Origin: Candidatus Moranbacteria bacterium CG_4_9_14_3_um_filter_44_28
Lineage (GTDB): Bacteria > Patescibacteriota > Minisyncoccia > Moranbacterales > UBA11712
Length of the DNA: 53,172 bases
Reading direction: 5' to 3'
Assembly: GCA_002790655.1 (NCBI GenBank)
Contig: PFVO01000018.1
Location: 1 to 53,172 of the forward strand
Shown here: in pieces, positions 4,358-51,909 of the stretch
How the letters are laid out: every line of letters begins with the position of its first letter
Numbering within the stretch: the stretch's first letter is position 1
Program-made: the position numbers and the translations under genes
The notes under the pieces: model-generated
The model's input: the letters and a program-made list of their open reading frames with translations, nothing else
Database searches by the model: none
Told to the model about the DNA's origin: nothing

Positions 4358-4488
4358 AAAATAAGCTTAGTGCTAATTTATAGTAAATTTTTTCTATCAA
4401 CTTTAGTTTCAAAATCCAAATTTTAAATTCTAAATTTCAAATCAAATTATAATGTCAAAATAAAAAATTTTAAATTAAAATTTTGAAA

Positions 4489-4558
4489 TTGATTTAAAAT
4501 TTGGTAGGCTTTTGCCTTTGGCAAAAGGGGTGGTGCGGCCAATTTGTCATTTGAAATT
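4489..4558. repeat. 70-nt conserved intergenic element, family P5, copy 1
   Basis: 63 of 70 positions identical to 40361-40430 by hand alignment. Core is a perfect hairpin cttttgcc-ttt-ggcaaaag (4509-4527). Confidence 0.85.
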
Positions 4559-7238: not shown

Positions 7239-8312
7239 CTATTTACTCCCAGTTTCAAAAAGTCTTTGTTCTAACAATGTGTATGTCCTAAAATAGCTTT
7301 TCACCCATTCGACTCCTTTGTTGCTAAATTCACCACTACGCTTGGCGATATCACCCATATAATCGGCGAACTCATATCTAAATTTAAGTAAATCGGTTTC
7401 CCCTTTGGAAACTTTTTCTCCTCTTTCGCTTCGATATTTTTCCATGACTTTAGGATTATCGAGGAAGTATTTTTGAAAATAATTCAGATCCTTTCGGGGA
7501 AATTTTTTCCCTTCACTTTTTATCATTCTAGTAAAAATACTCTCTATATTTTGCAATAATGATTCTTTCTTCTCTTCGGCATCTTTTCTGTCTTTCGGTT
7601 GCAACCTCCTATACTTTTCTTCCAATGCTTTGCTAATTTCCCCTATGCCCGATCTCTGCATTAGATGATCAAAAATTTTTTTCTGGCCTTCGCTAAGTTC
7701 TGCCCTTTCCTTACCAGCCTCAACTTCTTCCGGCTTTGACCTCGGCGCCGCCTCCGCCGGTCGCGGTTTTGGAGCCGGCTCGATCATGGCTGGTTTCTCA
7801 CCTTCTGTCTCTCGCCCGGCGTATCTCTTGCCCTCCAGATACTCCAGCCATCTTTTCGCTTGGATTCTATCCCATCTCCTCATAAAATCCTCTGCATCCT
7901 TTGTGCCCGGAGTAATCCGTTTAGGTTTATTATGAGTAAGAATCCAATCAATGTAAGGACCACTAAGATCAAGCCCGATTTCCGGAATTGCTTTTGCAAT
8001 TTCCGGATTTCGGCTCATCCTAATATCAAATATATTTTGCGCCAATTCCTCAATCATTTCTTCCCTTTTCATCTGCCAAAAATCGACGTCTGGAGTAAAA
8101 ACTTTTGATGCCTTTCCAGGAAAATTTTCGGCGGCTTCTTCTTTCGGCCCGATTCGCATCGCCTCTGGCGCTTCAGCCGGTTTCGGTCTTTTTTGCAGTT
8201 CTGAAGCCGCTCCGACAGCCGCTTTCTTCTTTTTAATCCCCAAAGCTCCACTAGCTTCATCCAAAAACATCTTTGTAATTTCTTCTTTTGATGGTTTTTC
8301 CATAGTTAGCAC
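7239..8312 (-). CDS. Hypothetical charged soluble protein
   Basis: 357-aa ORF with no TM segment and no motif I recognise. Lies 24 nt from the downstream gene on the same strand. Confidence 0.65.
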   Translation of the reverse strand: MLTMEKPSKEEITKMFLDEASGALGIKKKKAAVGAASELQKRPKPAEAPEAMRIGPKEEAAENFPGKASKVFTPDVDFWQMKREEMIEELAQNIFDIRMSRNPEIAKAIPEIGLDLSGPYIDWILTHNKPKRITPGTKDAEDFMRRWDRIQAKRWLEYLEGKRYAGRETEGEKPAMIEPAPKPRPAEAAPRSKPEEVEAGKERAELSEGQKKIFDHLMQRSGIGEISKALEEKYRRLQPKDRKDAEEKKESLLQNIESIFTRMIKSEGKKFPRKDLNYFQKYFLDNPKVMEKYRSERGEKVSKGETDLLKFRYEFADYMGDIAKRSGEFSNKGVEWVKSYFRTYTLLEQRLFETGSK

Positions 8313-12169: not shown

Positions 12170-12177
12170 CACGAAGT

Positions 12178-12269
12178 GTCATCCTGAATCCGCCTTGGCG
12201 GATGAAGGATCTCGTTGATAACTGAATTACACGGGATTCTTCACTTCGCTACGCTACGTTCAGAATGAC
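12178..12269. repeat. Palindromic element, family P1 (GTCATCC...GAATGAC), short copy
   Basis: gtcatcctgaatccgccttggcggatgaaggatc ... gggattcttcacttcgctacgctacgttcagaatgac. The termini are inverted repeats and are shared with 31197-31333 and 45822-45949. Confidence 0.8.
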
Positions 12270-12271
12270 AT

Positions 12272-15100: not shown

Positions 15101-15862
15101 CTATAAGATATTTTTCACCACTTTTGCCGCCATCCAGGCATATATGTTAGTCCGGCCATATTTTTTGATTCTTATGGATTCTTTTTTCCCTTGAAAAACG
15201 AAGTTGAATATCTGGCCTTGGGCATCTGTCTTGAGGTCTTCGGCCCGGGCATCTGCATCCTCGGCGAAGCCATAAGTGACAATTTTTGCTTTTGAAAAAC
15301 CAGCGAGACTTTTCACTCTTTCGTCGTCGCTATTGAGCAGCAGATATCCTTTTGCTGGAAGTTCTTTTGCCAGAAACTTCATTTCCTCGAAAATTTTCTC
15401 GAGGCTCGAATTTGAATAGGTATAGCTTCCTTCAATATTCGTGACAATCGCCATTTCCGGATGAACCATTTCGAGAAGATATTCCATGTCGCCTTTTTCT
15501 TCTACGCCAAGTTCGAGAACCAATTTTTTGGGAAATTTTCGCAAGAATAGGGCTCTCATTTTGGCTTGGACAAGTATTTTCAGCCATCGCAGCATTGATG
15601 ATTCTCCCGAATCAAGATAAAGAATTGCAAGAGGCAGTCCGATTTCCGTGTTATAGGATTTGGGATTTCCCCGAACCTCTTTTTCGCCATATTTTTCCCG
15701 CAGAAATTTGAGGATATAATCCTTAGTCGTGGTTTTGTTCGTGCTTCCCGCCACGGCGACAATGAACGGCCTGTGGCGCCAAAGAGTGATCTTCGTGAAG
15801 AGCTTGAGGTGGAATTGGACGATTTTTTTGAGTATTTTTTTCATGGCATTTTTCTCTAACAT
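15101..15862 (-). CDS. Mur ligase family protein, MurF-like central domain only
   Basis: IVAVAGSTNKTTTKDYI (GxxGKT-type P-loop), NTEIGLPL, ELGVEEKGDM..VTNIEG, LNSDDERV. Only 253 aa, with no C-terminal ligase domain. Confidence 0.6.
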   Translation of the reverse strand: MLEKNAMKKILKKIVQFHLKLFTKITLWRHRPFIVAVAGSTNKTTTKDYILKFLREKYGEKEVRGNPKSYNTEIGLPLAILYLDSGESSMLRWLKILVQAKMRALFLRKFPKKLVLELGVEEKGDMEYLLEMVHPEMAIVTNIEGSYTYSNSSLEKIFEEMKFLAKELPAKGYLLLNSDDERVKSLAGFSKAKIVTYGFAEDADARAEDLKTDAQGQIFNFVFQGKKESIRIKKYGRTNIYAWMAAKVVKNIL

Positions 15863-15875
15863 CGAATGTTAGGAT

Positions 15876-17108
15876 TCAAATTCTAAAAAATTTTTCCATC
15901 CTCTCAAACGCCTCATTAATATCCTCCTCGCTACGCCCAAAACACATCCGAATGTGGTTTTCTCCGCTGGGGCCGAAGGCCGCGCCGGGAACAACAGCCA
16001 CCTTCGCCTTCTCTAACAATTCTAGGGCAAACTGCCAACTTCCGCCATTTTTTGCGACTCTTCGCAAAATTTCGTCTTTTATTCGAGGGAATACAAAATA
16101 AGCGCTGTCCGGTTTCTGATATTCAAACACATTCTCTAATTTATCCAGTCTTTTACAAATCAAATTCCTTCTTTTTTGGAAATAATCTTTGAATTTTTTG
16201 ACGTCTTCCTGCGCCATCTCAAGCGCCGCTTGAGCCGCGAACTGGGAAACCACCGGCGCACAAGTAACCAGTGTGTCGTGGACGGCAAGAATTTTTTTCG
16301 CCAAATCTTGATGTGTCGCCAAAAATGCGATCCGCCAGCCGGTCATAGCGTAGGCTTTCGAGAAAGAGAAGATGTAAATCAGCCGATCGCGAATGCCGCG
16401 AAGTTCGGCCAGTGAATATAATCTTTCATTGGAATCGTTCACCCTGTTAAATTGCGCCGAAGGCGCACCTGCTTCGCAGGATTTAACAGGGTAAATAAAG
16501 TCCTTGTAAACCTCGTCGCTCAAAATATATAAATTATGCTTGATGGCCAGTTGCGCCAGCGCGTGTAACTGGTTGCGGGTGAAAATCGTTCCCGTTGGAT
16601 TATTTGGATTGCAAAAAAGAAAAGCTTTCGTCCGCGGTGTGATGAGTTTTTCAAATTTTTCAATATCCAGCGCCCAATGTTTTTCTTCAGCAAGCGGAAC
16701 AAAAACGGGAACTCCGCGAGCCACTTTGATCGCCGGCTGATATGATGTGTAAGTCGGGTCGGGAATCAAAACTTCGTCTCCCGGCTCGAGAATTGCCAGA
16801 AGTGTCGCCGTGATAGCCTCAATGGAACCGGCCGTCGCGATAATTTCCGTCTCAAAATCGTAGAATTTGTTTTCTTTTTCAAGGTATTGGGCAATTGTTT
16901 CCCGAAATTCCAAAGTCCCCGGCGCGAGCGAATATTTGGCCACTTTTCCCTTTTCGATCGCATCAATCGCCGCCCTTTTCACGGCTTCCGGTGTATCAAA
17001 AGACGGCACGCCTTGAGCAAGCGAAACAACTCCGGGAATGCGCGACGCCCGGAGCTCCATTTCTTTTATGGGGGAAAGATTAATCTTGTTTTTGTCGGAA
17101 AATTGCAT
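15876..17108 (-). CDS. Class I/II PLP-dependent aminotransferase (aspartate/aromatic type)
   Basis: CNPNNPTG, PLP-lysine motif SFSKAYAMTGWRIAF, C-terminal GENHIRMCF. Carries an in-frame palindromic insert at 16443-16492. Confidence 0.8.
   Translation of the reverse strand: MQFSDKNKINLSPIKEMELRASRIPGVVSLAQGVPSFDTPEAVKRAAIDAIEKGKVAKYSLAPGTLEFRETIAQYLEKENKFYDFETEIIATAGSIEAITATLLAILEPGDEVLIPDPTYTSYQPAIKVARGVPVFVPLAEEKHWALDIEKFEKLITPRTKAFLFCNPNNPTGTIFTRNQLHALAQLAIKHNLYILSDEVYKDFIYPVKSCEAGAPSAQFNRVNDSNERLYSLAELRGIRDRLIYIFSFSKAYAMTGWRIAFLATHQDLAKKILAVHDTLVTCAPVVSQFAAQAALEMAQEDVKKFKDYFQKRRNLICKRLDKLENVFEYQKPDSAYFVFPRIKDEILRRVAKNGGSWQFALELLEKAKVAVVPGAAFGPSGENHIRMCFGRSEEDINEAFERMEKFFRI
16443..16492. 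repeat. Nested-hairpin element, family P6, inside the aminotransferase CDS
   Basis: ccctgttaaat ... atttaacaggg is a perfect 11-bp inverted repeat. It encloses gcgcc-gaa-ggcgc and cctgc-ttc-gcagg hairpins. The 5' half matches 21/27 with the intergenic copy at 38905-38944. Confidence 0.8.
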
Positions 17109-21423: not shown

Positions 21424-21515
21424 GCGAGTGAAAAATTGGAGTTTAGAGAGTATCGCGTTCTGGCCTGCTCCGCAGGCCAGGTTAGCCTACTCGAAAAACT
21501 CTAATTTTTCGCGAG
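21424..21515. repeat. TIR-bounded element, family P2, copy A
   Basis: Termini gcgagtgaaaaattggag / ctctaatttttcgcgag are inverted repeats. The core is tatcgcgttctgg-cctgctccgcagg-ccaggttagcctac. Homologous to 29421-29512 and, inverted, to 34432-34520. Confidence 0.85.
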
Positions 21516-21598
21516 AGATTCTTTGAGAAAGCGAATTTTTCGCGAGATAGATCCCTCGACTACGCTCGGGATGACCCTGCCCTTCGCGAAGAGCTGAG

Positions 21599-23047
21599 TC
21601 ATTTTTCTTTCATCGGCGGGAAAATTACCGTCTCGCGCACGGATTTATTCATCAAAAACGCGAATAATCTTTCGCTGAATCCGAATCCAAAGGCTGGCGG
21701 CATTCCGTATTCGAGTGCTTCGACAAAATCTTCGTCGAGCATCTGGGCTTCCTTGTCGCCGGCTTCGCGAAGCTTCATCTGCTCCTCGAAACGCGCTCTC
21801 TGATCAATCGGGTCGTTTAGTTCCGCAAATCCGTTTCCCAGTTCCATTCCGCCGGCCATTACTTGAAGGCGTAAAACTTTCCGCGGATTTTTTGGATCTT
21901 TTTTAGCCAGCGGCGAAACTTCGACCGGATGGCCGACCAGAAAACAAGGCTGAACCATCTTCGGCCGCACAACTTTTTTGAAAATGAGATCAATCATCCT
22001 GCCTTTTCCGTATTCCGGCTTGTATTCGATTTTGAGTTCGTCCGCTTTCTTTCTCAAATCATCAACTGAAATATTTCTATTTAAATCCAACCCCGCCTCT
22101 TGTTTGAATAGCTTGAAATAATCTTCGGTTTCCCACTTGCCGCCCCAGTTGATTTGACTTCCCTCGTGCTCCGTTTCCATTTTCCCCGCAACTTTTTTCA
22201 CAACTTCCTGATATATCTTCTTCGTTAATCGCATTCCCTCTTTGAGGCTTGTATAAGCGCAGTAAAGTTCCACCATATCATATTCCTGCAGATGCTCCCT
22301 GTCAATCCCCTCGTTGCGAAAAACGCGCCCGATTTCAAAAACCTTTTCGTATCCGCCGACCAGCAATTTTTTGAGCGGCAGTTCGAGGGATATTCTCATA
22401 TAATAGTCTCTCGAAAGAGCGTTGTGGCGCGTGACAAACGGCTCCGCTTCCGCGCCGCCTGGAATATTTTCAAGAACCGGCGTCTGGACTTCCAAAAATC
22501 CTTTTTTGGCGAGAAAACTGCGTACTGTCTGCCAGAAAAGATTTTTCTGGCGGAACAGCTCGCGCGTTTCAGGATTGAACGCGAGATCGAGATATCTCCG
22601 ACGCAGAAGTTCTTCCATGTCTTTGAGGCCGAAATATTCCGTTGGAAGCGGCAAAAGACTCTTGCTTAAAATTTTCCAATCGCGGGCCTCAAGAGTCTTT
22701 TCGCCCGTTTTCGTGAGAAACAATTTTCCTTTCACTTCAGTAAAATCACCCAGTTCGATATTTTCCACAAATAAATCATATTCCCGATCTTTCAGATTCT
22801 CCTTTTTTAAAAAAACCTGGATCTTGCCGGATTCATCCTCGATATGACAAAAAGCCAACCCGCCCATTGACCGGAGCGAACGAACTCGGCCGACAAGAGA
22901 AATTTCTTTTCCCTGCAGTTCATCGAATTTCTCCAGCGCTTCCCAATTAGTCATTGAGCGCTCGGTTTTTTCAGGAAAAGGATCAAAGCCGGCATTTCGC
23001 AGGTTTTCGAGTTTTTTCAGTTTTATTTGTTTGATTTTGTCGAGCAT
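21599..23047 (-). CDS. lysS: Lysyl-tRNA synthetase, class II
   Basis: OB-fold N-terminus, GRVFRNEGIDREHLQEYDMVE, C-terminal GMPPAFGFGFSERL. Confidence 0.9.
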   Translation of the reverse strand: MLDKIKQIKLKKLENLRNAGFDPFPEKTERSMTNWEALEKFDELQGKEISLVGRVRSLRSMGGLAFCHIEDESGKIQVFLKKENLKDREYDLFVENIELGDFTEVKGKLFLTKTGEKTLEARDWKILSKSLLPLPTEYFGLKDMEELLRRRYLDLAFNPETRELFRQKNLFWQTVRSFLAKKGFLEVQTPVLENIPGGAEAEPFVTRHNALSRDYYMRISLELPLKKLLVGGYEKVFEIGRVFRNEGIDREHLQEYDMVELYCAYTSLKEGMRLTKKIYQEVVKKVAGKMETEHEGSQINWGGKWETEDYFKLFKQEAGLDLNRNISVDDLRKKADELKIEYKPEYGKGRMIDLIFKKVVRPKMVQPCFLVGHPVEVSPLAKKDPKNPRKVLRLQVMAGGMELGNGFAELNDPIDQRARFEEQMKLREAGDKEAQMLDEDFVEALEYGMPPAFGFGFSERLFAFLMNKSVRETVIFPPMKEK

Positions 23048-23051
23048 AAAC

Positions 23052-23189
23052 GAAAATTTTCAATTATCAATTTACAATTTTCAATCAATGATCAATTCTT
23101 CAATTTTCAATGTTTGGAAATTTAGTACATTGAAAATTTATTGAAAATTGAGCCTTGAAAATTGAGCCTTGAAAATTGAAAATTGCCAG
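23052..23189. repeat. Heptad-periodic imperfect palindrome (TTTTCAA left half, TTGAAAA right half)
   Basis: The right half 23141-23189 reads ttgaaaa ttgagcc ttgaaaa ttgagcc ttgaaaa ttgaaaa ttgccag. The left half carries the complementary ttttcaa units. Confidence 0.75.
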
Positions 23190-29410: not shown

Positions 29411-29420
29411 AATAAGCTTC

Positions 29421-29512
29421 AGCGAAAAATTGAGATTCAGAAAATATCGCGTCCTGCCCCGACTTTGCGTCGGGGCAGGTTAGCCTATTTGAAGAATCTC
29501 AATTTTTCGCTG
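29421..29512. repeat. TIR-bounded element, family P2, copy B
   Basis: agcgaaaaattgagatt ... aatctcaatttttcgct. The core keeps atcgcgtcctg and caggttagccta, but its central hairpin has a different sequence (ccccgac-tttgc-gtcgggg). Confidence 0.85.
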
Positions 29513-29522
29513 AATTAAATCT

Positions 29523-31167: not shown

Positions 31168-31196
31168 AATGCTATTATAACACTAATTTTAACACT

Positions 31197-31333
31197 GTCA
31201 TCCCGAGCGGAGACTCGATGAATAATCGAGACGCAGCCGAGGGATCTACGTTCATAATCTAATGGCCAGCCACTACGTCCGCACGCAGATTCCTCCACTC
31301 CTCCGACTTGCGTCGGAGTTCGGTCGGAATGAC
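31197..31333. repeat. Palindromic element, family P1, full-length intergenic copy
   Basis: gtcatcccgagcgga..cgagggatct..agccactacgtccgcacgcagattcctccactc..cggtcggaatgac. Block-by-block match to the copy inside miaB (45822-45949). Confidence 0.85.
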
Positions 31334-31343
31334 AGATGAAAGA

Positions 31344-32144: not shown

Positions 32145-33298
32145 AATTCTCCCGTTTTCCTAACTTCCCTGATTACCTTTTTAAAATTCTCCACAAACTT
32201 CTCTTTTGAAAACTTCTCCGCCTGTTCGCGAATTTTCTCCGGCTCATATTCTTTTTCTTTCTCCATAAACCTCCTCACTGCATCGGCCATCACTTCAATC
32301 GTTGACTCGTTGAAAAACTCCCCTGTCACGCCTTCAGTAATTGTTTCCGTCGCTCCGCCGCGCCGAAGCGCGATTACCGGCCGTCCAAAAGACATCGCTT
32401 CCACCGGCGCGATTCCAAAATCATCTTCCCCCGGAAAGACAAAGGCTCGGCACTCGGCATAATATTCTTTTATCTTTTTGTCCGGCAGCCAGCCCAAAAA
32501 CTTTGTTTTCGTCCCAGCAATTGATTTCAAAAATTTTACATATCTCGGCGAACCCTCCCCAACTACAATCAGGGGTAAATTCAGCTTATTAAAGGCCTCA
32601 ACTGCTATTTCGATTTTTTTATAAGGCGTGAGGCGGGAAACAATCAAAAAATAATCCTCCGCTTTACTCCTATCTCCCCTATTTCCCCGATTTTCCCAAT
32701 CACCCTTCATTTCCACCGGCGGATAAATCACCGCGCTCTCCCGCCCGTAATATTTTTTTATCCGCGCCTGCGTTGTCTTTGAGTTAGCGATGAAATAATC
32801 TACCCGATCGGCCGCCACCCGATCCCAGACACGGATATAATTGAGAAGAAGGCGCGCCAAAAGTTTTCTTTTGTCTCCCAATCCTTGTTCTGTTAAATAT
32901 TTTTCATTCCAATCCCAGCTGTAGCGCATCGGACTGTGGCAGTAGCAAACGTGAATCGTTTTCGGCTTCACGACGATTCCTTTCGCGAAGGCGCTGGAGG
33001 AGGAAACTACAAGATCGAAATCGCGCAAATTGAAAGTTTCCGGCACCGTCGGCATTAAAGGCAAGAGATATTTGTGTCTTTTCCGCAAAAATTTCGGGAA
33101 TTTCTGCAAAAACGACGGCCGGATGTCGGCATCTTTGAATTTTCCCCGCATTTTTTGCGGGTCATAAAGCAACGTATAAATCGGCGCATCGGGAAAAATC
33201 CCGTGAATCGCCTCGAGCACCCTCTCCGCCCCGCCGTATTGGTTCAAAAAATCGTGGACGAGAGCGACTTTCGGATTTTTAAAGTTATTCGCATTCAT
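32141..33298 (-). CDS. GT-B fold glycosyltransferase (family 4/1 type)
   Basis: FVFPGEDDFGIAPVEAMSFGRPVIA (EX7E-like), VSRLTPYKK. 4-nt overlap with holB. Confidence 0.8.
   Translation of the reverse strand: MNANNFKNPKVALVHDFLNQYGGAERVLEAIHGIFPDAPIYTLLYDPQKMRGKFKDADIRPSFLQKFPKFLRKRHKYLLPLMPTVPETFNLRDFDLVVSSSSAFAKGIVVKPKTIHVCYCHSPMRYSWDWNEKYLTEQGLGDKRKLLARLLLNYIRVWDRVAADRVDYFIANSKTTQARIKKYYGRESAVIYPPVEMKGDWENRGNRGDRSKAEDYFLIVSRLTPYKKIEIAVEAFNKLNLPLIVVGEGSPRYVKFLKSIAGTKTKFLGWLPDKKIKEYYAECRAFVFPGEDDFGIAPVEAMSFGRPVIALRRGGATETITEGVTGEFFNESTIEVMADAVRRFMEKEKEYEPEKIREQAEKFSKEKFVENFKKVIREVRKTGEL
32669..32692. repeat. Short shared insert, family P8, in the glycosyltransferase CDS
   Basis: cctatctcccctatttccccgatt matches ccatctctcttatttccccgat in murA (36799-36820) at about 20/23. 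Both are read in the same frame as NRGN(R/K)(G/R)D. Confidence 0.65.
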
Positions 33299-34416
33299 TA
33301 GTTTTTATCGTTCGCAACAATTAGCATTTGGGCTATGCTACTCGCGCACCTCTCCCAGCTAAACCTCTTCACATTCTCCAATCCCTTTTCTATTATATCA
33401 TTTTTATAACTTTCATCCGAAATCAATTTATAAACTGCTTCCGTAACCGCGTTTATGTCTTTCGGATCCACTAAAACCGCCCCAACACCGGTCACTTCGG
33501 GCATTGAGGAAATATTCGACGTTACCACCGGCGTTCCGACTCTTTGCGCCTCGAGAATCGGCAAACCAAATCCCTCATAAAAAGTCGGGAACAAAAACAC
33601 ATCGGCATTTTTCAACAATTCCCACTTCTCCCCATCACTCACGTACCCAGCCAAAACAATATCTTCCTTATATTTGCTATTTGCTATTTTATATTTTATA
33701 TGATTTTCTCCGTACCCAAACTTCCCCGCAAGAATCAATTTGTGTGAAATATTATATTTGCTTTTCAGAATTTCAAAGGTTTTAATCATTCCACAGATAT
33801 TTTTACGTTCTTCTAATCTCCCAACAAACAGAAAATAAGGTTTGAAAATTTTGTCATTGAAAATTTTTTGAAAATTGAAAATTGAAAATTGAAAATTATT
33901 TTCGCTGATTCCTTCATATATCACTTCAATTTTCTCCTCCGGCACTTTATATAGCTTCATCAGATCCTTCTTCGTATTCTTACTCACCGCAATCACTTTC
34001 CGTGCCCACTGGCAAGATTTTTTTATCGACCAACGCATATATAGCTTTTGCCAAAACGAATAAGCTTTCGGACAAAATTCGTATTCAAGTCCGTGAATTG
34101 TGACAATCGTATTTTTTGGGTGAAAAATAGGAACTGTATGCGCTGGGACAAATAATGCGTCCGGCGAACTAAACAGCATCTCGAGCGACAGCCGAACCTG
34201 CGTCCAGAAAATCGGCGCGCGCAAAAATTTCAATTCCCAATTTTCCGGAAGATCAAAATTCATATGCTCTTTTCTGTTGATTTTTGGATTCAGATACAAA
34301 ATCACTTGCTCGTTTTTCAATTCATCTCGCAAGTGTTTGATAACCTGATAGGAATACTCTTCAATTCCGGTTTTGTTTTTCACGAACGCTCGTGAAGCAT
34401 CGATGCCGATAAGCAT
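33298..34416 (-). CDS. GT-B fold glycosyltransferase (family 4/1 type)
   Basis: LFPTFYEGFGLPILEAQRVGTPVV, FVGRLEERKN. 1-nt overlap with the downstream glycosyltransferase gene. Confidence 0.8.
   Translation of the reverse strand: MLIGIDASRAFVKNKTGIEEYSYQVIKHLRDELKNEQVILYLNPKINRKEHMNFDLPENWELKFLRAPIFWTQVRLSLEMLFSSPDALFVPAHTVPIFHPKNTIVTIHGLEYEFCPKAYSFWQKLYMRWSIKKSCQWARKVIAVSKNTKKDLMKLYKVPEEKIEVIYEGISENNFQFSIFNFQKIFNDKIFKPYFLFVGRLEERKNICGMIKTFEILKSKYNISHKLILAGKFGYGENHIKYKIANSKYKEDIVLAGYVSDGEKWELLKNADVFLFPTFYEGFGLPILEAQRVGTPVVTSNISSMPEVTGVGAVLVDPKDINAVTEAVYKLISDESYKNDIIEKGLENVKRFSWERCASSIAQMLIVANDKN
33868..33895. repeat. Perfect (TTGAAAA)x4 heptanucleotide tandem repeat inside the CDS
   Basis: Units at 33868-74, 33875-81, 33882-88 and 33889-95. 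Two further isolated ttgaaaa units lie at 33842 and 33857. Encodes ..FQFSIFNFQ.. on the minus strand. Confidence 0.9.
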
Positions 34417-34431
34417 AATATATTACAGCAA

Positions 34432-34520
34432 GCGAAAAATTAGAGTTTTTCAAGTAGGCTAACCTGTCCTGCGAAGCAGGCCAGAGCGCGATACTTTTAA
34501 AACTCTAATTTTTCGCGAGA
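34432..34520. repeat. TIR-bounded element, family P2, copy C (opposite orientation)
   Basis: Its reverse complement (cgcgaaaaattagagttttaaaagtatcgcgctctggcctgcttcgcaggacaggttagcctacttgaaaaactctaatttttcgc) aligns closely with copy A. Confidence 0.85.
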
Positions 34521-34570
34521 TAATTACCGGAATCCCTCGACGAGCTCGGGATGATTCCGCTACGGCGGAA

Positions 34571-39063: not shown

Positions 39064-40422
39064 TTAGTAATTTTTCAATATTTTTTTGAACTCATCCGCG
39101 TAGCGAAGTACCCGATCCGAATACCAGGAATAATTTTCCCAATTCGCGCCAGCCAGGTATATTCCCGCCGCTTTCGCCCAGGCCTTGCGGTCTCCCGAGG
39201 TTACTCCGTCAACCGCCGCGAGTTTGAGTCCCATTGCCACCATTGAATCTTTAATGTCCCACGGATTGGCCGGACTTTCGCCCGTCAATTTTTCCACTTT
39301 GCTTTTATATCCCATCCAAGTGCTCGGCAAAAACTGGGCCGGCCCCATCGCGCCGCCCCAGCCTCCGCAACCATCATCCGAATCGCGATTATAACAAGCT
39401 CTCCTTGAAACTGGAGTTTTCCCCGGGTCAATTCCCAGTTCATTGCAAACTTTTTTGAAAGTATCCCATTGAGCCGGATTCATGTCTGTCTTATACCGTC
39501 CCCCGCCAACATTGGTTCCCAGACCGGATTCCACCCGCAATACCCCCAGCAGAAATTCCGGAGCGACGCTTGTAATCCCCGAAGCATACTTGGCCGCCCG
39601 TACCGCTTCTTCAATGGCAATCGGCTCGCCCAGTGACTGAAGCATATTGAGCTCCGCCTGAAGCTTATCCATTTTTTGCTCGAGGGCCTGCTTTTCATTT
39701 TGTATCTGCGACACCAGAATATCCTTCATTTCTTTTTCCTGCCCCAGAGACCGCTCCTGGTCTTTTTGCATGTAGCGAAGAGTTTCCTTTTCGGCTTTTT
39801 TGTCCAGCAAATCTTTTTTTTGTCTTTTCAACTCATCTCTTATGCCAACCAGCTGATTATAAACTTCCATCGTCTGGCCTTCAAAGTTCTCCAGTCCTTC
39901 TACTTTCGAAAAATAATCCGAGAAACTTTGATTGCTGAAAATAATTTCTGATGTGATATCATCCCCCTTTTCGTAAAGTTCCTGCAAAAATTTCGCGAGC
40001 ATCTCTCTTTTTACCACAACTTTCTTTTCCATTTCGTCAATTTCCGTTTGCTTTTGCGAAATATCCAAATCGAGCTGATTGATTACCAGTTCCGTCTCCT
40101 GTATCTGCAGTTCGATTTTTTTGATATCGGTTTCCAGTATTTCGATGTCATTTGAAACCGACTGTTCCTTTTGATTTTTTTCAAAAATATTCTGTTGGTA
40201 ACCGCTGATTTGATTTCGCAAATTCTCAATTCTGCTTTTCAATTCTTCTCTTTGAACTTCCTTATTGTCCTGTGCGGCAAAAGTAGCAGAAAAAACAATT
40301 AATAAACCAGTAAGAACAGACACAAATAATTTAAAGCGTCTAGAACTTAAAAATTTAGAATTGATTTGAAATTTGTTAGGCTTTTGCCTTTGGCAAAAGG
40401 GATGGTATAGCCAATTTGACAT
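39064..40422 (-). CDS. Coiled-coil protein with a C-terminal lytic transglycosylase-like domain
   Basis: N-terminal hydrophobic segment, about 230 aa of coiled coil, then LLGVLRVESGLGTNVGG (catalytic Glu context) and GAMGPAQFLPSTW. The first 20 or so codons of the track ORF are a translation of repeat P5, so the true start is uncertain. Confidence 0.7.
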   Translation of the reverse strand: MSNWLYHPFCQRQKPNKFQINSKFLSSRRFKLFVSVLTGLLIVFSATFAAQDNKEVQREELKSRIENLRNQISGYQQNIFEKNQKEQSVSNDIEILETDIKKIELQIQETELVINQLDLDISQKQTEIDEMEKKVVVKREMLAKFLQELYEKGDDITSEIIFSNQSFSDYFSKVEGLENFEGQTMEVYNQLVGIRDELKRQKKDLLDKKAEKETLRYMQKDQERSLGQEKEMKDILVSQIQNEKQALEQKMDKLQAELNMLQSLGEPIAIEEAVRAAKYASGITSVAPEFLLGVLRVESGLGTNVGGGRYKTDMNPAQWDTFKKVCNELGIDPGKTPVSRRACYNRDSDDGCGGWGGAMGPAQFLPSTWMGYKSKVEKLTGESPANPWDIKDSMVAMGLKLAAVDGVTSGDRKAWAKAAGIYLAGANWENYSWYSDRVLRYADEFKKILKNY

Positions 40423-40430
40423 TTGAAATT
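40361..40430. repeat. 70-nt conserved intergenic element, family P5, copy 2
   Basis: 63/70 identical to 4489-4558, with the same cttttgcc-ttt-ggcaaaag hairpin. Confidence 0.85.
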
Positions 40431-45193: not shown

Positions 45194-46774
45194 ATGAAGT
45201 ATTATATCAAGATCTTCGGCTGTCAAATGAACCATTCCGACGCCGAAAGAGTTTCCGCAATACTCGCAAAATATAAACTTAAACAAGCCTCGTCAATCGA
45301 TGAGGCTAATTTAGTCATATTTGTCACCTGCGGCGTGCGCCAAAGCGCTGAAGATCGTGTTTATGGACAAATAAACAATCTTCGCAAAAAATATCCGGAG
45401 AAAAAAATAATTCTCACCGGCTGTTTGGCGCACCAGAGAGATGTTCAGCGAAGACTGAAAGACAAGGTTGATTTATTTACCATAATCAAAGATTTTCCCA
45501 AGAAAATTTTATTTGTCATTGCGAGGAACGTAGCGACGAAGCAATCCCGAACAATACAAGAAAACGCGAGATTGCTTCGCTACGCTCGCAATGACAAAAG
45601 CGATTACCTCAAAATCACTCCGCGCTACACAAATTCTTATACCGCATATATTCCTATCATGACCGGCTGCGATAATTTCTGCGCCTATTGCGTCGTCCCC
45701 TGCGCCCGCGGACGCGAATATTCAAGACCCGCGGAAGATATTCTGAAGGAAGTAAAACACCTTGCGAATAAAGGCTATAAAGAAATTATATTGCTTGGCC
45801 AAAACGTTAACTCCTACTATTGTCATCCCGAGCGGAATCTCGACGGTTTAGTCGGGATGCAGTCGAGGGATCTGCATGCATCAGCAAATAGCAAGCCACT
45901 GCTTCCGCACGCAGATTCCTCCACTCCGCTTCGCTTCGGTCAGAATGACAAAGAAATAGATTTTCCAAAACTTCTTCATCTCATCGAAAAAATTCCCGGC
46001 CGCTTCTGGATAACTTTCCTCACTTCCCATCCTAAAGACATGTCCGACGAACTGATTGAAACTATTGCTAAGAGCAAGAAGATCTGCGAGTATATCAGCT
46101 TGCCGGCGCAGTCAGGAGATGATGCAATTCTCAAGAAAATGAACCGGCATTATTCAGTCGCTCACTATAAAAAACTTATCAAGAAAATCCGCGCGGAGTT
46201 TGTAGGTGTCCGACCGCAGTCTGATACGGTCGGCGGTCGGACACCTACAGAAAAAAAGTTGCCCCCTGCCATTTCCACCGACATTATCGTCGGCTTTCCC
46301 GGCGAAACGAAAAATCAATTTGAAAACACGGCTAAACTCCTTCGCGAAATGAAATTCGATATGGCCTATATCTCCCAATACTCCCCCCGCCCCGAAACCG
46401 TTGCTTGGAAACTAAAGGACAATGTCTCAAAAAAAGAAAAAGCCCGCCGGGAAAAAGTTTTGACGAAGATCCTCGAAAAAACCGCGCTGGAAAATAACAA
46501 AAAATACGTTGGAAAAGTAGTTGAAGTTTTAGTCGATAGAAGGTTCGACCTTGAGGAATTCCCCGACGAAAAGTCGGGGAAGGGAAAGGTCGAACCTTGG
46601 AGAGAAAAATACCTCGCTCACACCCGCACCCAAAAGAAAGTCATGTTTTCCTCCGACAAAAAAATCCCCGTCGGGAATTTCGCAAAAGTCAAAATCACAA
46701 AAGTGAAAGCATTTGGGATGGAGGGAGAAATTAAAAAGGGCCGTCATGCCGACAGCGACAGAGGCCCTATATAA
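45194..46774 (+). CDS. miaB: tRNA methylthiotransferase MiaB carrying four palindromic in-frame inserts
   Basis: KIFGCQMN, radical-SAM CDNFCAYCVVP, DIIVGFPGET, C-terminal TRAM-like end. 526 aa against about 440-450 for typical MiaB as I recall. Confidence 0.9.
   Translation: MKYYIKIFGCQMNHSDAERVSAILAKYKLKQASSIDEANLVIFVTCGVRQSAEDRVYGQINNLRKKYPEKKIILTGCLAHQRDVQRRLKDKVDLFTIIKDFPKKILFVIARNVATKQSRTIQENARLLRYARNDKSDYLKITPRYTNSYTAYIPIMTGCDNFCAYCVVPCARGREYSRPAEDILKEVKHLANKGYKEIILLGQNVNSYYCHPERNLDGLVGMQSRDLHASANSKPLLPHADSSTPLRFGQNDKEIDFPKLLHLIEKIPGRFWITFLTSHPKDMSDELIETIAKSKKICEYISLPAQSGDDAILKKMNRHYSVAHYKKLIKKIRAEFVGVRPQSDTVGGRTPTEKKLPPAISTDIIVGFPGETKNQFENTAKLLREMKFDMAYISQYSPRPETVAWKLKDNVSKKEKARREKVLTKILEKTALENNKKYVGKVVEVLVDRRFDLEEFPDEKSGKGKVEPWREKYLAHTRTQKKVMFSSDKKIPVGNFAKVKITKVKAFGMEGEIKKGRHADSDRGPI
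45515..45595. repeat. P1-variant palindromic insert 1 in miaB
   Basis: gtcattgcgaggaacgtagcgacgaagcaatc ... gattgcttcgctacgctcgcaatgac, 81 bp (27 codons). Encodes VIARNVATKQSRTIQENARLLRYARND. Confidence 0.85.
45822..45949. repeat. P1 full-length insert 2 in miaB
   Basis: gtcatcccgagcgga..cgagggatctgc..agccactgcttccgcacgcagattcctccactc..cggtcagaatgac, matching the intergenic copy 31197-31333. Confidence 0.9.
46202..46248. repeat. Palindromic insert 3 in miaB
   Basis: gtaggtgtccgaccg ... cggtcggacacctac is a perfect 15-bp inverted repeat. Encodes VGVRPQSDTVGGRTPT. Confidence 0.85.
46540..46598. repeat. Nested palindromic insert 4 in miaB
   Basis: aaggttcgacctt ... aaggtcgaacctt encloses ccccgac-gaaaa-gtcgggg. 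Confidence 0.85.
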
Positions 46775-47043: not shown

Positions 47044-48039
47044 ATGTCAAGTAGTCGTAAAATCCTCGTCATTCTCGGTCCGACTTCATCGGGAAAGTCC
47101 GATATTGCCATTAAACTGGCTAAAAAGTTCAACGGTGAAATCATTTCCGCTGACAGCCGGCAGATTTATCGCGGGATGGATATCGGGACTGGAAAGGCGA
47201 AGCGAGATCGAAGATCTCGCGTAGTCCCGAATAAATCTAGCGAAGCTAGATTTCGTGAGGGATCTCGCGAAAATAGCAATGCTTTTATGTCTTGTAGCAT
47301 CCCTCACTACATGATTTCTATTGCCAGTCCCCGTGCCAATTACAACGTCGCCAAATTTAAAAAACAAGCCGGAAAAATTATCAAGGATATCCTGAAGCGC
47401 GGGAAACTTCCCGTCATCTGCGGTGGGACTGGATTCTGGATTTCGGCGATCATTGATGACATAAATTTTCCAGAAGTCAAACCTGATTGGAAGTTGCGAA
47501 AAAAGCTCGAAAAATATTCCACCGAAAAACTTTTCGCGATGCTTGAAAAATTAGATCCCGAAAGGGCAAAAAATATCGACGCAAAAAACAAAGTCCGCCT
47601 CATCCGCGCCATCGAAATATGTAAATCAATAAAAAAAGTGCCAGTTCTTGCTGGCATCCCGAGCGTAGTCGAGGGATCTGGTCAGAATAACAAATATCAA
47701 TTTCTCCAAATCGGCATAAAATTATCCCGCGAACAACTTTATAAAAATATCGAGAAGCGCGTTAAATTCCGTTTCAAGCAAGGAACGATTGAAGAAGTAA
47801 GAAAGCTACGCAAGCAGGAATTAAGCTGGAAAAAAATTCAATCTTTCGGCCTCGCCTATTTCTGGATTCCTTTATATCTCCAAAATAAAATATCCAAAGC
47901 TGAACTTATCAAAAAAGTTATCCATGCCGAAAAAAATTACGCCAAACGCCAAATGGCTTGGTTCAAAAGAGACAAAAGAATTAAGTGGTTTAGAAACAAT
48001 GGCAGTATCTTAAAAAAAGTCTCAAATTATTTAAAATAA
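47044..48039 (+). CDS. miaA: tRNA dimethylallyltransferase MiaA with palindromic in-frame inserts
   Basis: P-loop GPTSSGKS, ISADSRQIYRGMDIGTGK, GGTGFWISAI. Confidence 0.9.
   Translation: MSSSRKILVILGPTSSGKSDIAIKLAKKFNGEIISADSRQIYRGMDIGTGKAKRDRRSRVVPNKSSEARFREGSRENSNAFMSCSIPHYMISIASPRANYNVAKFKKQAGKIIKDILKRGKLPVICGGTGFWISAIIDDINFPEVKPDWKLRKKLEKYSTEKLFAMLEKLDPERAKNIDAKNKVRLIRAIEICKSIKKVPVLAGIPSVVEGSGQNNKYQFLQIGIKLSREQLYKNIEKRVKFRFKQGTIEEVRKLRKQELSWKKIQSFGLAYFWIPLYLQNKISKAELIKKVIHAEKNYAKRQMAWFKRDKRIKWFRNNGSILKKVSNYLK
47202..47307. repeat. Composite of three hairpins inserted in miaA
   Basis: gcgagatc-gaa-gatctcgc (47202-47220), aaatctagc-gaa-gctagattt (47233-47253), gtgagggat...atccctcac (47255-47307). 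It lies between GMDIGTGK and IPHYMI. Confidence 0.85.
47654..47691. repeat. Miniature P1-like element in miaA
   Basis: gcatcccgagcgtagtcgagggatctggtcagaataac joins both P1 termini directly. Confidence 0.75.
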
Positions 48040-48099: not shown

Positions 48100-49107
48100 T
48101 TATCCTAAGAGTACTTTCTTGAGAAGCGCCATTCGGACATAAAGTCCGTTTTCCGCCTGTTGGATATATTTTGCCCGCGGGTCGTTGTCGAACCATTCCG
48201 GAATTTCGCCGAAGGCCGGATCGCGAGGCAGAGGATGCATCACAATCACGTCCTTTTTCAATTTTTTCACGACTTCCTTGGTTATCGAACAATTGTTTCT
48301 GATAAAATCATAATCCACTTGAATCCCTCCGAGTCTTTCTTTTTGCACCCGCGTCATATAAAACACATCAATTTTATTCGCGACGTCAATCAGTTTTTCG
48401 TATTCTGTGAATTTCACTTTTTTCTTCTTAAGATATTCTTTGATGTCGTCCCTCATTTTGAGAACTGAAGGTGAGACAAAAAAGAATTCCAGTTTTTCCG
48501 AATCCTGATATTTGTTAAGGAGATAAGCAAGAGAGCGAACTGTGCGCCCGTTTGCGAGATCCCCCACAAAGGCTATATTGATTCTCTCGCTATGAATGTT
48601 TTTCTTAAGTTCGTTATCATAAAATCTTTTAATCGTGTAAAGATCAAGAAGCGCCTGTGTTGGATGTTGACCTGCTCCGTCACCCGCATTGATGATGGAA
48701 ACCGTTCGCCCGCTCGCCCGCGCCGCCTCGTCCGCTTCGCGCGCCATTCCTTCTTTATCCGTCCGCATCACAATGGCATCAACTCCATACCCGCAGAACA
48801 TCGCGATTGTATCCTTCACGGTCTCACCTTTCACAACTGAAGAGAATTGCCGCGCCGGCGGAATAGCCATAACTCTCGCGCCAAGATTCTCCGCCGCGAC
48901 AAAAAAAGATGACCACGTGCGGGTGCTCGGTTCATAAAACAGGAGAGCAATTCTCTTTTCTGCCATTTTCTTCCAGATACCCTCGCACCATTTTTTATCT
49001 TCTCCTGAAACATGATTATCATCCAGATACTCGCACATAATCTGCATACGGTCGGCTTCAGCAAACAAATCATTAAGAATTTCCCGATTGAACTGCTGGA
49101 CTTCCAA
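48100..49107 (-). CDS. pyrB: Aspartate carbamoyltransferase catalytic chain-like
   Basis: EPSTRTW (STRTR with the last R replaced by W), GQHPTQALLD, GDLANGRTVRS, TRVQKER, HPLPR. It has an extra N-terminal segment. Confidence 0.75.
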   Translation of the reverse strand: MEVQQFNREILNDLFAEADRMQIMCEYLDDNHVSGEDKKWCEGIWKKMAEKRIALLFYEPSTRTWSSFFVAAENLGARVMAIPPARQFSSVVKGETVKDTIAMFCGYGVDAIVMRTDKEGMAREADEAARASGRTVSIINAGDGAGQHPTQALLDLYTIKRFYDNELKKNIHSERINIAFVGDLANGRTVRSLAYLLNKYQDSEKLEFFFVSPSVLKMRDDIKEYLKKKKVKFTEYEKLIDVANKIDVFYMTRVQKERLGGIQVDYDFIRNNCSITKEVVKKLKKDVIVMHPLPRDPAFGEIPEWFDNDPRAKYIQQAENGLYVRMALLKKVLLG

Positions 49108-49504: not shown

Positions 49505-51004
49505 CTATTTATTTAATTTTGCTTTCATAATACCCAAGGCAACTTTGGGGTTAATTTTCCCCTCACTCTCCTTCATAACTTGTCCGAGCAAAAATTGCAA
49601 GGCCGCCTGCTTGCCGGCCTTGAAGTCCGCAACTGGTTGGGAATTTTCAGAAACTACTTTTTCCACAATTTTTTCTATCTCCAAATCGTCTTCGATTTGT
49701 CCCAAATTTTTCTCCGCGATGATATGTTCCGGATCGGCGCCGGTTCTTACCATTTCCGCAAGAACCATTTGTGCCGTGCTAGAATTTATCTTACTTTTAG
49801 AAATTATACTCATAAGTTCACCGAAATTTTCGGGCGTTATCTTGAGATCTTTTATTCCGACTTTGTCATTTAAATATTTTTTCAACTCTGAAATAATATA
49901 ATTGGCTGTGAGCTTGGCTAATTTACCATCATCTTTATCCCTCACCAAATCAAAACCATCTTCTTTACTCCTTTTTGATTTGGTGAGGGACGAGCATAAC
50001 TCGCAAGCTTCGCTCACCGCTTCCTCAAAAAATTCCGCTGTTTCTTTATCCTGCGAAAGAACTTCGGCGTCATACTCCGGCAGTTTGTATTCGCTGCGAA
50101 ATCTTATGATCTTTTGCGCTGGAAGTTCGGGAAGTTCTGCTCGGATTTTATTCACGTAATCTTCGCTGAACTCAAGCGGCGGCAAATCCGGTTCGGGAAA
50201 ATAGCGATAATCGTGGGCGGATTCCTTTTCCCTTTGCGAGAAAGTCTGCATTTTGCTCTCGTCCCATCCTCTTGTTTCTTGGATAATTTTTTTTCTTTCT
50301 TCAAGCACCTCCATCTGTCTTTTGATTTCAAAATCAATGGCTTTCTCAACTGATTTGAAGGAATTTAGGTTTTTTATTTCAACCTTGGTGCCTCTTTCAG
50401 TCTTTTTTCGAGAAATAGAAATATTCGCTTCGCAACGCATGTGTCCTTTTTCCATATCAGCGTCGGAAATTCCGAGATAGCGCAAAATGAGCTGCAGTTC
50501 CTCGCAGAATTTCTTGGCTTCCTCGGCTGATTCAATATCCGGTTCTGTCACAAGCTCCATAAGCGGAATTCCCGAGCGGTTGAAATCAACGAGGCTAAAG
50601 TCAGTCCCCTTTTGATGAAGGAGTTTTCCGGTATCTTCTTCAAGATGAATGCGCGTGATATCAATTCTTTTTTTACCTATTATTAAATATCCACCCCCGC
50701 ATATCGGCTGGTCATACTGGGAAATTTGATATCCCTTGGGAAGATCGGGATAAAAATAGTTTTTGCGGTCGAATTTGGAAATTTTTGCAATTTTGCAATT
50801 GAGAGCAAGGCCGGCTTTCACAACATATTCAATTGCTTTTTCGTTTGCAACTGGAAGCGCCCCGGGCTGGCCCGTGCAAACCGGGCAAATGTTGCTGTTC
50901 GGCACCCGGTCAAGCTCCAGCTCATTTTTGCACGCGCAAAACATCTTGGAAGCGGTTTTAAGCTCCACGTGCACTTCCATGCCGATTGTCGGCTCATACT
51001 TCAT
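49505..51004 (-). CDS. gatB: Asp/Glu-tRNA amidotransferase subunit B
   Basis: IGMEVHVEL, CPVCTGQPGALP, DFNRSGIPLMELVTEPD, C-terminal YqeY-like tail. Palindromic insert at 49938-49988. Confidence 0.9.
   Translation of the reverse strand: MKYEPTIGMEVHVELKTASKMFCACKNELELDRVPNSNICPVCTGQPGALPVANEKAIEYVVKAGLALNCKIAKISKFDRKNYFYPDLPKGYQISQYDQPICGGGYLIIGKKRIDITRIHLEEDTGKLLHQKGTDFSLVDFNRSGIPLMELVTEPDIESAEEAKKFCEELQLILRYLGISDADMEKGHMRCEANISISRKKTERGTKVEIKNLNSFKSVEKAIDFEIKRQMEVLEERKKIIQETRGWDESKMQTFSQREKESAHDYRYFPEPDLPPLEFSEDYVNKIRAELPELPAQKIIRFRSEYKLPEYDAEVLSQDKETAEFFEEAVSEACELCSSLTKSKRSKEDGFDLVRDKDDGKLAKLTANYIISELKKYLNDKVGIKDLKITPENFGELMSIISKSKINSSTAQMVLAEMVRTGADPEHIIAEKNLGQIEDDLEIEKIVEKVVSENSQPVADFKAGKQAALQFLLGQVMKESEGKINPKVALGIMKAKLNK
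49938..49988. repeat. Perfect 17-bp inverted-repeat insert (51 bp, 17 codons) in gatB
   Basis: ccctcaccaaatcaaaa (49938-49954) and ttttgatttggtgaggg (49972-49988). Encodes ..SLTKSKRSKEDGFDLVRD.. and shares CCCTCACCA/TGGTGAGGG termini with 37344-37417. Confidence 0.85.
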
Positions 51005-51369: not shown

Positions 51370-51909
51370 CTAAATTTGTGTCTCCCTCCCTTCCGTCGTC
51401 ACTCTCCCGCCCTGCCATTGGCCGCGATACTGACTGCCCTCTCCCCGAACTTCGTGGAAAGTGATATGGACAACCCGTGCACCCATGTCGACTTTGATAT
51501 TCGATTTTCCGAGATTGCAAAGACCAAATGTGAGCTCACCCTGATAACCGGTATTCACGATTCCATTAAAAAGCGCGAGTCCTGACCGGAAAAGAGTCGT
51601 TCGCGGGAAAATTATTCCCGCGATATCAATCGGGAGATTCACTTTTTCCACGGTTTTGATGAGATAATATTTCCCCGGCTCGAAGATATAGGAAGCCACT
51701 TTTTTAGAGTCATATTTCGCGACCAGACTTGATTTAGGTGTTTCTCTTTCTTCAAGGCCTAAATAACCATAACCCTCCAGTTCATATACTTCCCCCATCC
51801 GCAAATCAAAACCGGATCCTTCAGGATTTTCCAGCTCACGCTCGGATAAGCCTTCAATAAGTTTTTTTTCTTTTATGAGACGAGGAAGTTCTTTGATTCC
51901 TAATATCAT
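51370..51909 (-). CDS. dcd: dCTP deaminase / dUTPase-superfamily protein
   Basis: GSGFDLRMGE, IIFPRTTLFRSGL, VNTGYQGELTFGLCN. 179 aa. Confidence 0.75.
   Translation of the reverse strand: MILGIKELPRLIKEKKLIEGLSERELENPEGSGFDLRMGEVYELEGYGYLGLEERETPKSSLVAKYDSKKVASYIFEPGKYYLIKTVEKVNLPIDIAGIIFPRTTLFRSGLALFNGIVNTGYQGELTFGLCNLGKSNIKVDMGARVVHITFHEVRGEGSQYRGQWQGGRVTTEGRETQI

Follow-up and report, generated by a model that had tools for sequence, protein, structure and literature searches.

Dispersed palindromic repeats probably retained in frame in four loops of the MiaB enzyme of a Candidatus Moranbacteria bacterium

Palindromic repeats residing in coding sequences were first described as a peculiarity of Rickettsia, and later found sporadically in a few other phyla. 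Rickettsia palindromic elements (RPEs) are dispersed between and inside unrelated protein genes, where the genic copies are in frame, stop-free and thought to be compatible with the fold of the host protein (PMC10969869). A 2024 review singles them out for unusually frequent in-frame fusions with host open reading frames (ORFs) (PMC10969869), and R. felis possesses 728 copies, 85 of which lie in ORFs (PMC1166351). Here, we focus on miaB, the gene coding for the tRNA i6A37 methylthiotransferase, at positions 45194..46774 (+) of a contig of an ultra-small bacterium, Candidatus Moranbacteria bacterium CG_4_9_14_3_um_filter_44_28 (PFVO01000018.1). The whole stretch of DNA analysed, 53,172 nt (53 kb) long and covering part of the genome, is called the window below. 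[quoted passage not shown]

REPs tagged with GTAG or CGTC, and the related REPINs, are short stem-loops, often arranged as inverted dimers that form longer hairpins; most REPs are intergenic, although intragenic ones in several phyla encode 20-80 residues, some genes having two of them, and two Xanthomonas species have an intragenic REP at about the same site of recB (PMC3733652, PMC3116915). Bacterial MITEs (Correia, ERIC, BOX, RUP, QMITE1) are multi-copy and non-coding, with occasional in-frame fusions to host ORFs (PMC10969869). PARCELs, too, are dyad-symmetric coding DNA able to spread from genome to genome; they differ from the single inserts in a housekeeping enzyme considered here in forming whole surface proteins from tandem arrays of a 25-residue amphipathic motif (PMC2996958). 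Patescibacteria, the candidate phyla radiation (CPR), are not among the phyla listed for GTAG- or CGTC-tagged REPs (PMC3733652), and a literature search, with most subscription journals beyond reach, yielded no paper on MITE, REP or palindromic elements in this group.

A preliminary description of this DNA had placed four palindromes in miaB, at 45515-45595, 45822-45949, 46202-46248 and 46540-46598, and all were recovered with slightly wider limits. Insert 1 (45512..45598, +) is an 87-nt nested palindrome with TTTGTCATTGCGAG termini, coding for residues 107-135 (FVIARNVATKQSRTIQENARLLRYARNDK) in the linker that joins the N-terminal cluster domain to the radical-SAM domain. Its perfect 14-nt arms (45512-45525 and 45585-45598) enclose two nested pairs (45526-36 with 45577-87, and 45537-49 with 45567-79). 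Insert 2 (45820..45951, +), a 132-nt multi-hairpin element with TTGTCATCCCGAG...AGAATGACAA termini, directly follows the GQNVNSY motif and codes for residues 209-252 (YCHPERNLDG...RFGQNDK); its 15-nt arms (45820-45834 and 45937-45951) are 80% complementary. Insert 3 (46201..46249, +) is a 49-nt hairpin, read as FVGVRPQSDTVGGRTPT, in the loop preceding the STDIIVGFPGET strand, with arms that start with TGTAG. Its inverted repeat is perfect, as had been stated, but the arms (46201-46217 and 46233-46249) measure 17 nt and not 15. Insert 4 (46540..46598, +) is a 59-nt nested hairpin that is translated in silico as RFDLEEFPDEKSGKGKVEP and falls within the TRAM domain's first hairpin loop; perfect 13-nt outer arms, AAGGTTCGACCTT / AAGGTCGAACCTT (46540-46552 and 46586-46598), surround an inner 9-bp hairpin (46559-46567 and 46573-46581) formed by the module CCCCGAC-GAAAA-GTCGGGG.

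Compared with dinucleotide shuffles, inserts 1-4 reach folding z-scores of -8.8, -4.9, -7.9 and -7.7, respectively, with none of 200 shuffles as stable. In a 70-nt sliding scan of minimum free energy (MFE) over the whole window, inserts 3 and 4 stand out as the strongest two hairpins, and perfect inverted repeats of at least 13 nt inside window genes are confined to three in miaB and one in gatB. The miaB core is an unclean null for such control windows, as it holds a native hairpin of its own with a z-score of about -4.5 (45286-45308, 9 bp), which encodes the conserved ASSIDEA segment. The orthologue L084 reads AASIDAA at this segment, with both arms altered (TCG to GCT and GAG to GCG), which hints at DNA-level covariation inside the miaB core.

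The frame used by miaB is free of stops in all four inserts, as previously claimed, whereas stops occur in seven of the eight unused sense frames; insert 1 is open in the frame in use only. Two intergenic copies of the GTCAT type, described below, contain stops in all three sense frames, including the one that miaB uses. Furthermore, the miaB inserts, and those examined in relatives, comprise whole numbers of codons. Selection on the reading frame, a question raised in the preliminary description, thus has direct support at the sequence level. Each insert is a strong hairpin within a coding region, and some yeast mitochondria bypass mobile GC-rich hairpins during translation, so one may ask whether the inserts are missing from the mature protein, through translational bypassing or through removal as an intron or intein. 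In known bypass elements, such as that of T4 gene 60 and the mitochondrial byps, the hairpin inserts disrupt the frame or contain stops, and the ribosome passes over them; the miaB inserts, in contrast, are in frame and open. Since bypassing or excision would lift the need for open frames, these point to translation. Rfam gave no intron family match, and 13-44 residues is far below the size of an intein. Loss of the inserts from the protein therefore seems very improbable.

The host gene is intact. The 526-aa product of its open ORF matches Pfam UPF0004 (4.7e-22), Radical_SAM (2.1e-25) and TRAM (2.7e-06), all beyond curated cut-offs. All six cluster cysteines are present: C10 lies within FGCQMN, and C46, C77, C159, C163 and C166 are, along with other core residues, invariant across 83 aligned clade MiaB sequences. 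In the core, orthologue pairs differ by 0.41-0.47 per codon at third positions versus 0.10-0.22 at first and second positions; judging from these differences, it is under purifying selection. With third-position changes in such excess and the cysteines conserved, miaB can be regarded as functional and not as a pseudogene. The preliminary description called MiaB essential, which is an overstatement: it is not known to be so, and its B. subtilis orthologue, ymcB, tolerates disruption (PMC2952846).

Repeats can mislead assemblers, and the source is metagenomic. However, the identical protein (PIV83430.1 and copies of it) occurs on 34 contigs (NCBI, JGI, ENA, Logan), the longest of 94.7 kb, and four identical NCBI entries carry the name Candidatus Moranbacteria bacterium. 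Of 14 other members of this protein cluster, 13 measure 526 or 515 aa and retain the four inserts, as read in nine of them, which differ by point substitutions only. The same elements also occupy the same sites in assemblies of other species. Taken with the purifying selection and the six cysteines, the independent contigs rule out mis-assembly across repeats, or decay of the gene, for all practical purposes.

With regard to structure, a sequence search identified the Bacteroides uniformis MiaB structures 7MJV-7MJZ as the closest solved relatives. Foldseek ranks alike, as an AlphaFold model of the 526-aa protein (mean predicted local distance difference test, pLDDT, 73.7; predicted template modelling score, pTM, 0.75) retrieves these five first (E about 1e-36), with RimO next, and the predicted core superposes on them with TM-scores of 0.79-0.81 (normalised to target). 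The pLDDT falls below 50 at residues 114-136, 214-249 and 342-351, in inserts 1-3, and is moderate at 450-470, in insert 4; these segments are flanked by confident core elements. In all likelihood, transcription and translation include the inserts, which would form flexible peptides at the protein surface and may be neutral for the enzyme. Predicted tryptic peptides spanning the junctions are ILFVIAR, NVNSYYCHPER, AEFVGVRPQSDTVGGR and FDLEEFPDEK.

A search of about 5.8 billion proteins delineated a Moranbacteria/Parcubacteria MiaB clade (57-68% identity, lengths of 414-549 aa), and the DNA of eight relatives was retrieved for codon alignments with the window miaB. One orthologue (P0067/L084), of 426 aa after correction of its start codon, is free of inserts. 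Every palindrome of the window gene corresponds to a block missing from it, and the limits of the inserts coincide with those of the palindromes. No homologous peptide exists at these positions in repeat-free orthologues. The alignment thus bears out the expectation of lineage-specific blocks that coincide with the DNA palindromes and lie between conserved MiaB segments. Relative to the empty state, the window MiaB has gained 12 + 41 + 13 + 19 = 85 aa at sites 1-4, to which an extra 12-aa C-terminal tail is added, so that the earlier figure of about 100 residues is roughly right. Orthologues had also been said to have short loops at these places. This holds for site 2, where the solved Bacteroides MiaB has six residues in place of the 44 of insert 2, and for site 3, where it has none. 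Site 1, however, is an inter-domain linker that is variable in all relatives, and the net gain there is just about 12 aa.

In the alignment of the 83 clade members, 90% of the internal residues beyond the conserved core sit in the same four sites. Counting a site as filled if it holds at least 8 residues beyond the empty state, 10 orthologues have no filled site, 19 have one, 23 have two, 22 have three and nine have all four. The presence of four inserts in one gene, which had been considered striking, is therefore not exceptional in this clade, 73 members of which carry at least one. More distant Patescibacteria also bear such inserts in miaB, while the MiaB genes from outside the CPR showed few inserts, none of them strongly folding. 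Wherever DNA was at hand, the inserts at sites 3 and 4 proved to be strong hairpins, with z-scores of -5.5 to -10.9 in close relatives.

The families of inserts are not tied to particular sites. Peptides of the KSLALRNSE... family are present at sites 1, 3 and 4, those of the KGGLRGI... family at sites 1 and 4, those of the VRPHSSLAARSD and FRRFNLR..KVEPS families at sites 3 and 4, and NTKYQIPDTK and FQNSKFKIQN at sites 1 and 2. Conversely, one site may hold differing families across genomes: site 3 contains TGTAGGTGTCCGACCGC...GCGGTCGGACACCTACA in the window and the same family in L085, but an unrelated perfect palindrome, GAGACTAAGTCCCC-AATT-GGGGACTTAGTCTC, in L081 and L208. The family of insert 1 recurs at the same site in L085 and L088, and insert 2 has in-frame counterparts in L081 and L082 but is absent from L084 and L085. 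The outer stem of insert 4 is common to L086, L087 and L208, with a different interior. In a neighbour-joining tree of the MiaB core, in which deep nodes are weak, carriers of each family are scattered. As for frame-breaking insertions, the truncated orthologue P0080 was considered and rejected, its break being a frameshift at QYSPRPE, apart from the inserts and probably due to an assembly error. The miaB orthologue on a 357-kb contig (L207, 3001-4460), broken away from the inserts by a frameshift at QYSPRPE that is probably an assembly error, has members of one family, KLSFGELRAKASKEKSLAL, at sites 3 and 4 alike. A 793-aa relative (P0077) combines IPT/IPPT and MiaB domains and appears to be a MiaA-MiaB fusion.

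Insertions into insertions are also encountered. An extra 36-nt hairpin lies inside the site-1 element of L085, site 2 of L081 has an extra 21 nt, and site 4 of P0017 joins two families. At site 4 of the window and of L208, a CCGAC...GTCGG module sits within the outer stem that L086 and L087 fill otherwise, and at site 2 the NSY-Y/S-CHPE junctions are identical for two subfamilies of GTCAT elements. Together with the high occupancy of the four sites, these observations would fit hot spots that arise from targeting and not from selection alone, new elements preferring positions within or beside existing hairpins so that a filled site becomes a landing pad. On the other side, members of the same families are found in ordinary intergenic DNA and in other genes, no candidate enzyme was identified among the 42 ORFs of the window, and all four sites are places where the fold would tolerate a change in length, so that selection alone suffices. 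We regard targeting as a possible but rather unlikely contributor.

The preferred explanation, that of dispersed repeats filtered by selection, is supported by further copies outside miaB. Insert 2 had been described as a block-by-block match to an intergenic sequence, and it is indeed 82% identical over 79 ungapped nt to a full-length intergenic copy at 31195..31335 (+; z-score -4.0), with the blocks in the same order; the miaB insert is devoid of one internal hairpin that this copy has. A shorter member with GTCAT termini is located at 12176..12271 (+; z-score -7.0), and these two are the intergenic copies whose sense frames are all closed. Termini of the form GTCAT(Y)(S)(Y)GAG number 14 in the window versus 3.75 expected, including those of the two intergenic elements and of a remnant in miaA, and the insert-2 family as a whole is represented in the window by two full and two partial copies. 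A pattern scan of metagenome contigs for its conserved core matched at least 118 stretches. Most of the 83 copies analysed are intergenic and about 11 pass through long ORFs; about half of these genic matches look like spurious ORFs or chance, and clear in-frame copies in unrelated proteins are found in L149, L157, L106 and L089. The insert-3 family occurs twice in L085, in miaB and in miaA. The inner module of insert 4, CCGAC-loop-GTCGG, is present four times in the window versus 0.07 expected. Three of these modules (29459-29473, 31303-31316 and 46563-46577) are nested in different larger palindromes, one being inside the intergenic insert-2 copy and another inside a different intergenic palindrome. 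The fourth match (46278-46293) lies in conserved STDIIVG codons and may be due to chance. That the palindromes arose in place was rejected for inserts 2 and 3, since other loci hold members of their families, and seems less favoured for insert 4, the outer stem of which was found only in the miaB of other genomes.

A scenario can be proposed from these data. Dispersed, non-autonomous palindromic repeats would enter miaB, and the inserts would persist where they add whole codons, bring no stop into the frame used and fall in a loop or linker that the fold tolerates. The four positions are the linker between the N-terminal and radical-SAM domains, the loops that follow GQNVNSY and precede the STDIIVGFPGET strand, and TRAM's first hairpin loop. 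Clade-wide, the four sites are repeatedly filled, nested into, replaced and emptied, a pattern that insertions would leave if they were frequent and then strongly selected for frame, lack of stops and position.

Several observations weigh against this scenario. Not one of the 42 window ORFs showed a transposase or REP-associated tyrosine transposase (RAYT) domain, the window contains no insertion sequence (IS), and no direct repeat indicative of a target-site duplication flanks any of the five GTCAT-type copies read. Mobility is therefore deduced from distribution only, from which the elements are most likely mobile. Within the window, inserts 1, 3 and 4 have one copy each, insert 1 having in common with other copies the terminal motif only. 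A further objection concerns the inserts shared by relatives. When the same family is compared at the same site, pooled third-position differences amount to 36/292 (0.12), versus about 0.45 in the flanks, while first- and second-position differences (94/584, 0.16) are similar to those of the flanks. For insert 2, a single one of 44 third positions differs between the window and L082 (P = 6.5e-11). The pairs are not independent of one another; all comparisons go in the same direction. Such behaviour is not that of a loop which is purely neutral and inherited vertically.

Codon periodicity is thus lacking in shared inserts, the third positions of which change about 3.5 times more slowly than flanking third positions, and their high identity ends sharply at the element borders. 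At site 3, the three arm positions that differ between the window and L085 are all compensated on the opposite arm, and at site 1 unpaired positions are substituted about 3 times more often than paired ones. The site-4 peptides of P0020 and P0033 suggest compensatory arm changes as well, at the peptide level only. Furthermore, insert 2 is 92% identical between the miaB genes of the window and L082, as against 82% between miaB and the intergenic copy within the window, which argues against homogenisation within a genome. Taken together, these features could mean that the hairpins are kept for a role at the nucleic-acid level, such as mRNA stability or processing, a pause of the ribosome between the domains of an Fe-S enzyme, or a DNA structure that a host factor binds, the peptides then being a by-product. 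Such a role would be compatible with a mobile origin. Nevertheless, 10 of the 83 orthologues do without any insert and occupancy is patchy, unrelated palindrome families replace each other at one site, the same families exist in intergenic DNA and in other genes, and no Rfam family matched. Moreover, intrastrand template switching in quasi-palindromes can yield compensatory change in the absence of selection. A nucleic-acid role is thus unlikely, and somewhat more so than targeting.

Two readings could account for the low divergence: either the elements were acquired recently or repeatedly at identical junctions, or the hairpin itself is constrained. If the copies are younger than the genes that carry them, repeated gain at identical junctions would follow, and with it some form of targeting. 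It is conceivable, although improbable in our view, that the four loops of MiaB are landing pads in which hairpins are gained, nested and swapped, at a rate sufficient to mark 73 of the 83 orthologues, and that the stems are constrained beyond neighbouring synonymous sites. Patescibacteria would then possess a hairpin-targeting system of mobilisation, so far undescribed, to which the lineage would owe a major share of its protein-length variation; alternatively, intragenic hairpins would have been co-opted, for instance for inter-domain ribosome pausing or mRNA stability.

Returning to the filtered-repeat explanation, the likeness to RPEs advanced in the preliminary description is well founded, as RPEs are defined by the way in which dispersed palindromes insert in frame and without stops (PMC10969869). 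Families represented in miaB, foremost that of insert 2, are dispersed in genic and intergenic copies, and the copies in miaB are in frame and stop-free at the sequence level. The likeness is one of behaviour. The elements belong to Patescibacteria, a different phylum, and have different sequences; they measure 49-132 nt, compared with about 100-150 nt for RPEs, and constitute many families in the Moranbacteria clade in place of few. In addition, the same four sites of one enzyme are reused clade-wide, with up to four elements per gene. The miaB elements seem to work like RPEs but are not assigned to them as members, and common descent is unlikely since the organism is a Candidatus Moranbacteria.

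As regards REPs, insert 3 and its relatives start with GTAG, and insert 3 was considered as a candidate GTAG-REP. The definition of this class comprises a stem of 5-13 bp, a loop of 2-20 nt and an unpaired GTAG tag at one end (PMC3733652). In insert 3, GTAG is paired with CTAC and the stem reaches 17 bp; because of this paired tag and excessive stem length, it is not a member. Inserts 1, 2 and 4 have no GTAG end, and no RAYT gene was found among the ORFs of the window, which covers part of the genome. With MITEs, inserts 1 and 2 share terminal inverted repeats of the TTGTCAT...ATGACAA type (TTTGTCATTGCGAG / CTCGCAATGACAAA in insert 1 and TTGTCATCCCGAG / ...GAATGACAA in insert 2). They differ from MITEs in that neither a target-site duplication nor a parent IS was found in the window, and in that the miaB elements are palindromic throughout and multi-hairpin, not merely inverted at their ends. 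The small dispersed repeats of cyanobacteria, reportedly described by Elhai et al. in 2008 in Genome Res, are said to be tiny, palindromic, mobile and nesting, and to preserve the frame in coding regions; they come from other taxa and have other sequences than the Moranbacteria elements.

These comparisons point to Rickettsia-like coding palindromes in a new phylum and not to a one-off oddity. What makes the locus truly interesting is that many palindrome families have used four permissive loops recurrently, and that shared inserts are conserved at the nucleotide level. In this clade of Patescibacteria, coding palindromes appear to be routine, representing up to 16% of the length of an enzyme and recurring in the same four loops in dozens of lineages. 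They would provide a concrete source for unexplained insertions and length variation of CPR proteins, and, as in an insertion-scanning experiment done by nature, a map of the places at which 10-45 additional residues are tolerated by the MiaB fold. With many independent events at homologous sites, it becomes testable whether palindromes seed new protein segments or are merely tolerated. For annotation, repeat-derived peptides that inflate CPR protein families call for caution.

Other genes of the window have inserts of the same kind. The neighbouring miaA (47044..48039, +) has two variable sites, filled by different families in different genomes. Site A, after the GTGK motif (AKRDRRSRVVPNKSSEARFREGSRENS), holds an in-frame hairpin insert (47197..47277, +; z-score -3.5) that forms a peak in the MFE scan; it is occupied by a KSLAL-type insert in L082 and by the insert-3 family in L085, and is empty in L084. 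Site B contains the GTCAT-type remnant (47653..47690, +), the counterpart of which in L082 is a 40-aa GTCAT-type element. In gatB (49505..51004, -), an in-frame palindrome with perfect 18-nt arms (49938..49990, -; z-score -8.1) adds 19 residues between the GatB_N and GatB_Yqey domains and is absent in L082 and L084. The thrS gene adjoining miaB has no insert in the window genome, and a single 11-residue insert was found in it among five genomes. Further intragenic hairpin peaks, with z-scores of -3.5 to -4.1, were noticed in two separate unannotated ORFs (4226-4310 and 7966-8035), in an aminotransferase gene (16426-16510), in a class II aminoacyl-tRNA synthetase gene (22516-22590) and in dcd (51601-51670).

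The window also contains other repeats. A palindromic element of about 95 nt, GCGAAAAATTAGAGTTTT...AAAACTCTAATTTTTCGC, is present in three intergenic copies (21425-21510, 29418-29514 and 34432-34516). Each has its own GC-rich inner hairpin, and two are followed by a GTCAT-type fragment (21540-21575 and 34530-34555). An 87-nt direct repeat, 87% identical between its copies (4472-4558 and 40344-40430), lies near gene ends and contains a GGCTTTTGCCTTTGGCAAAAGG hairpin. AT-rich inverted and tandem repeats of the AAATTGAAAATTG type occur at 23055-23185 and 33866-33934, one set being inside a glycosyltransferase gene (33298..34416), and the peptides GNWKLEI and FQNSKFKIQN at MiaB sites 1 and 2 of relatives match repeats of this type. 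Rfam matched no family in the window, and ARAGORN detected no tRNA in it.

The order of the ftsW-thrS-miaB-miaA-gatB-dcd block is otherwise conserved, apart from an aspartate/ornithine carbamoyltransferase gene (48100-49107, -) between miaA and gatB, which is likewise present in L207 but not in L082 or L084. Finally, the ORF at 15101-15862 (-) codes for 253 aa, which is short for a Mur ligase; it matches only the Mur ligase middle domain and may be truncated or split.

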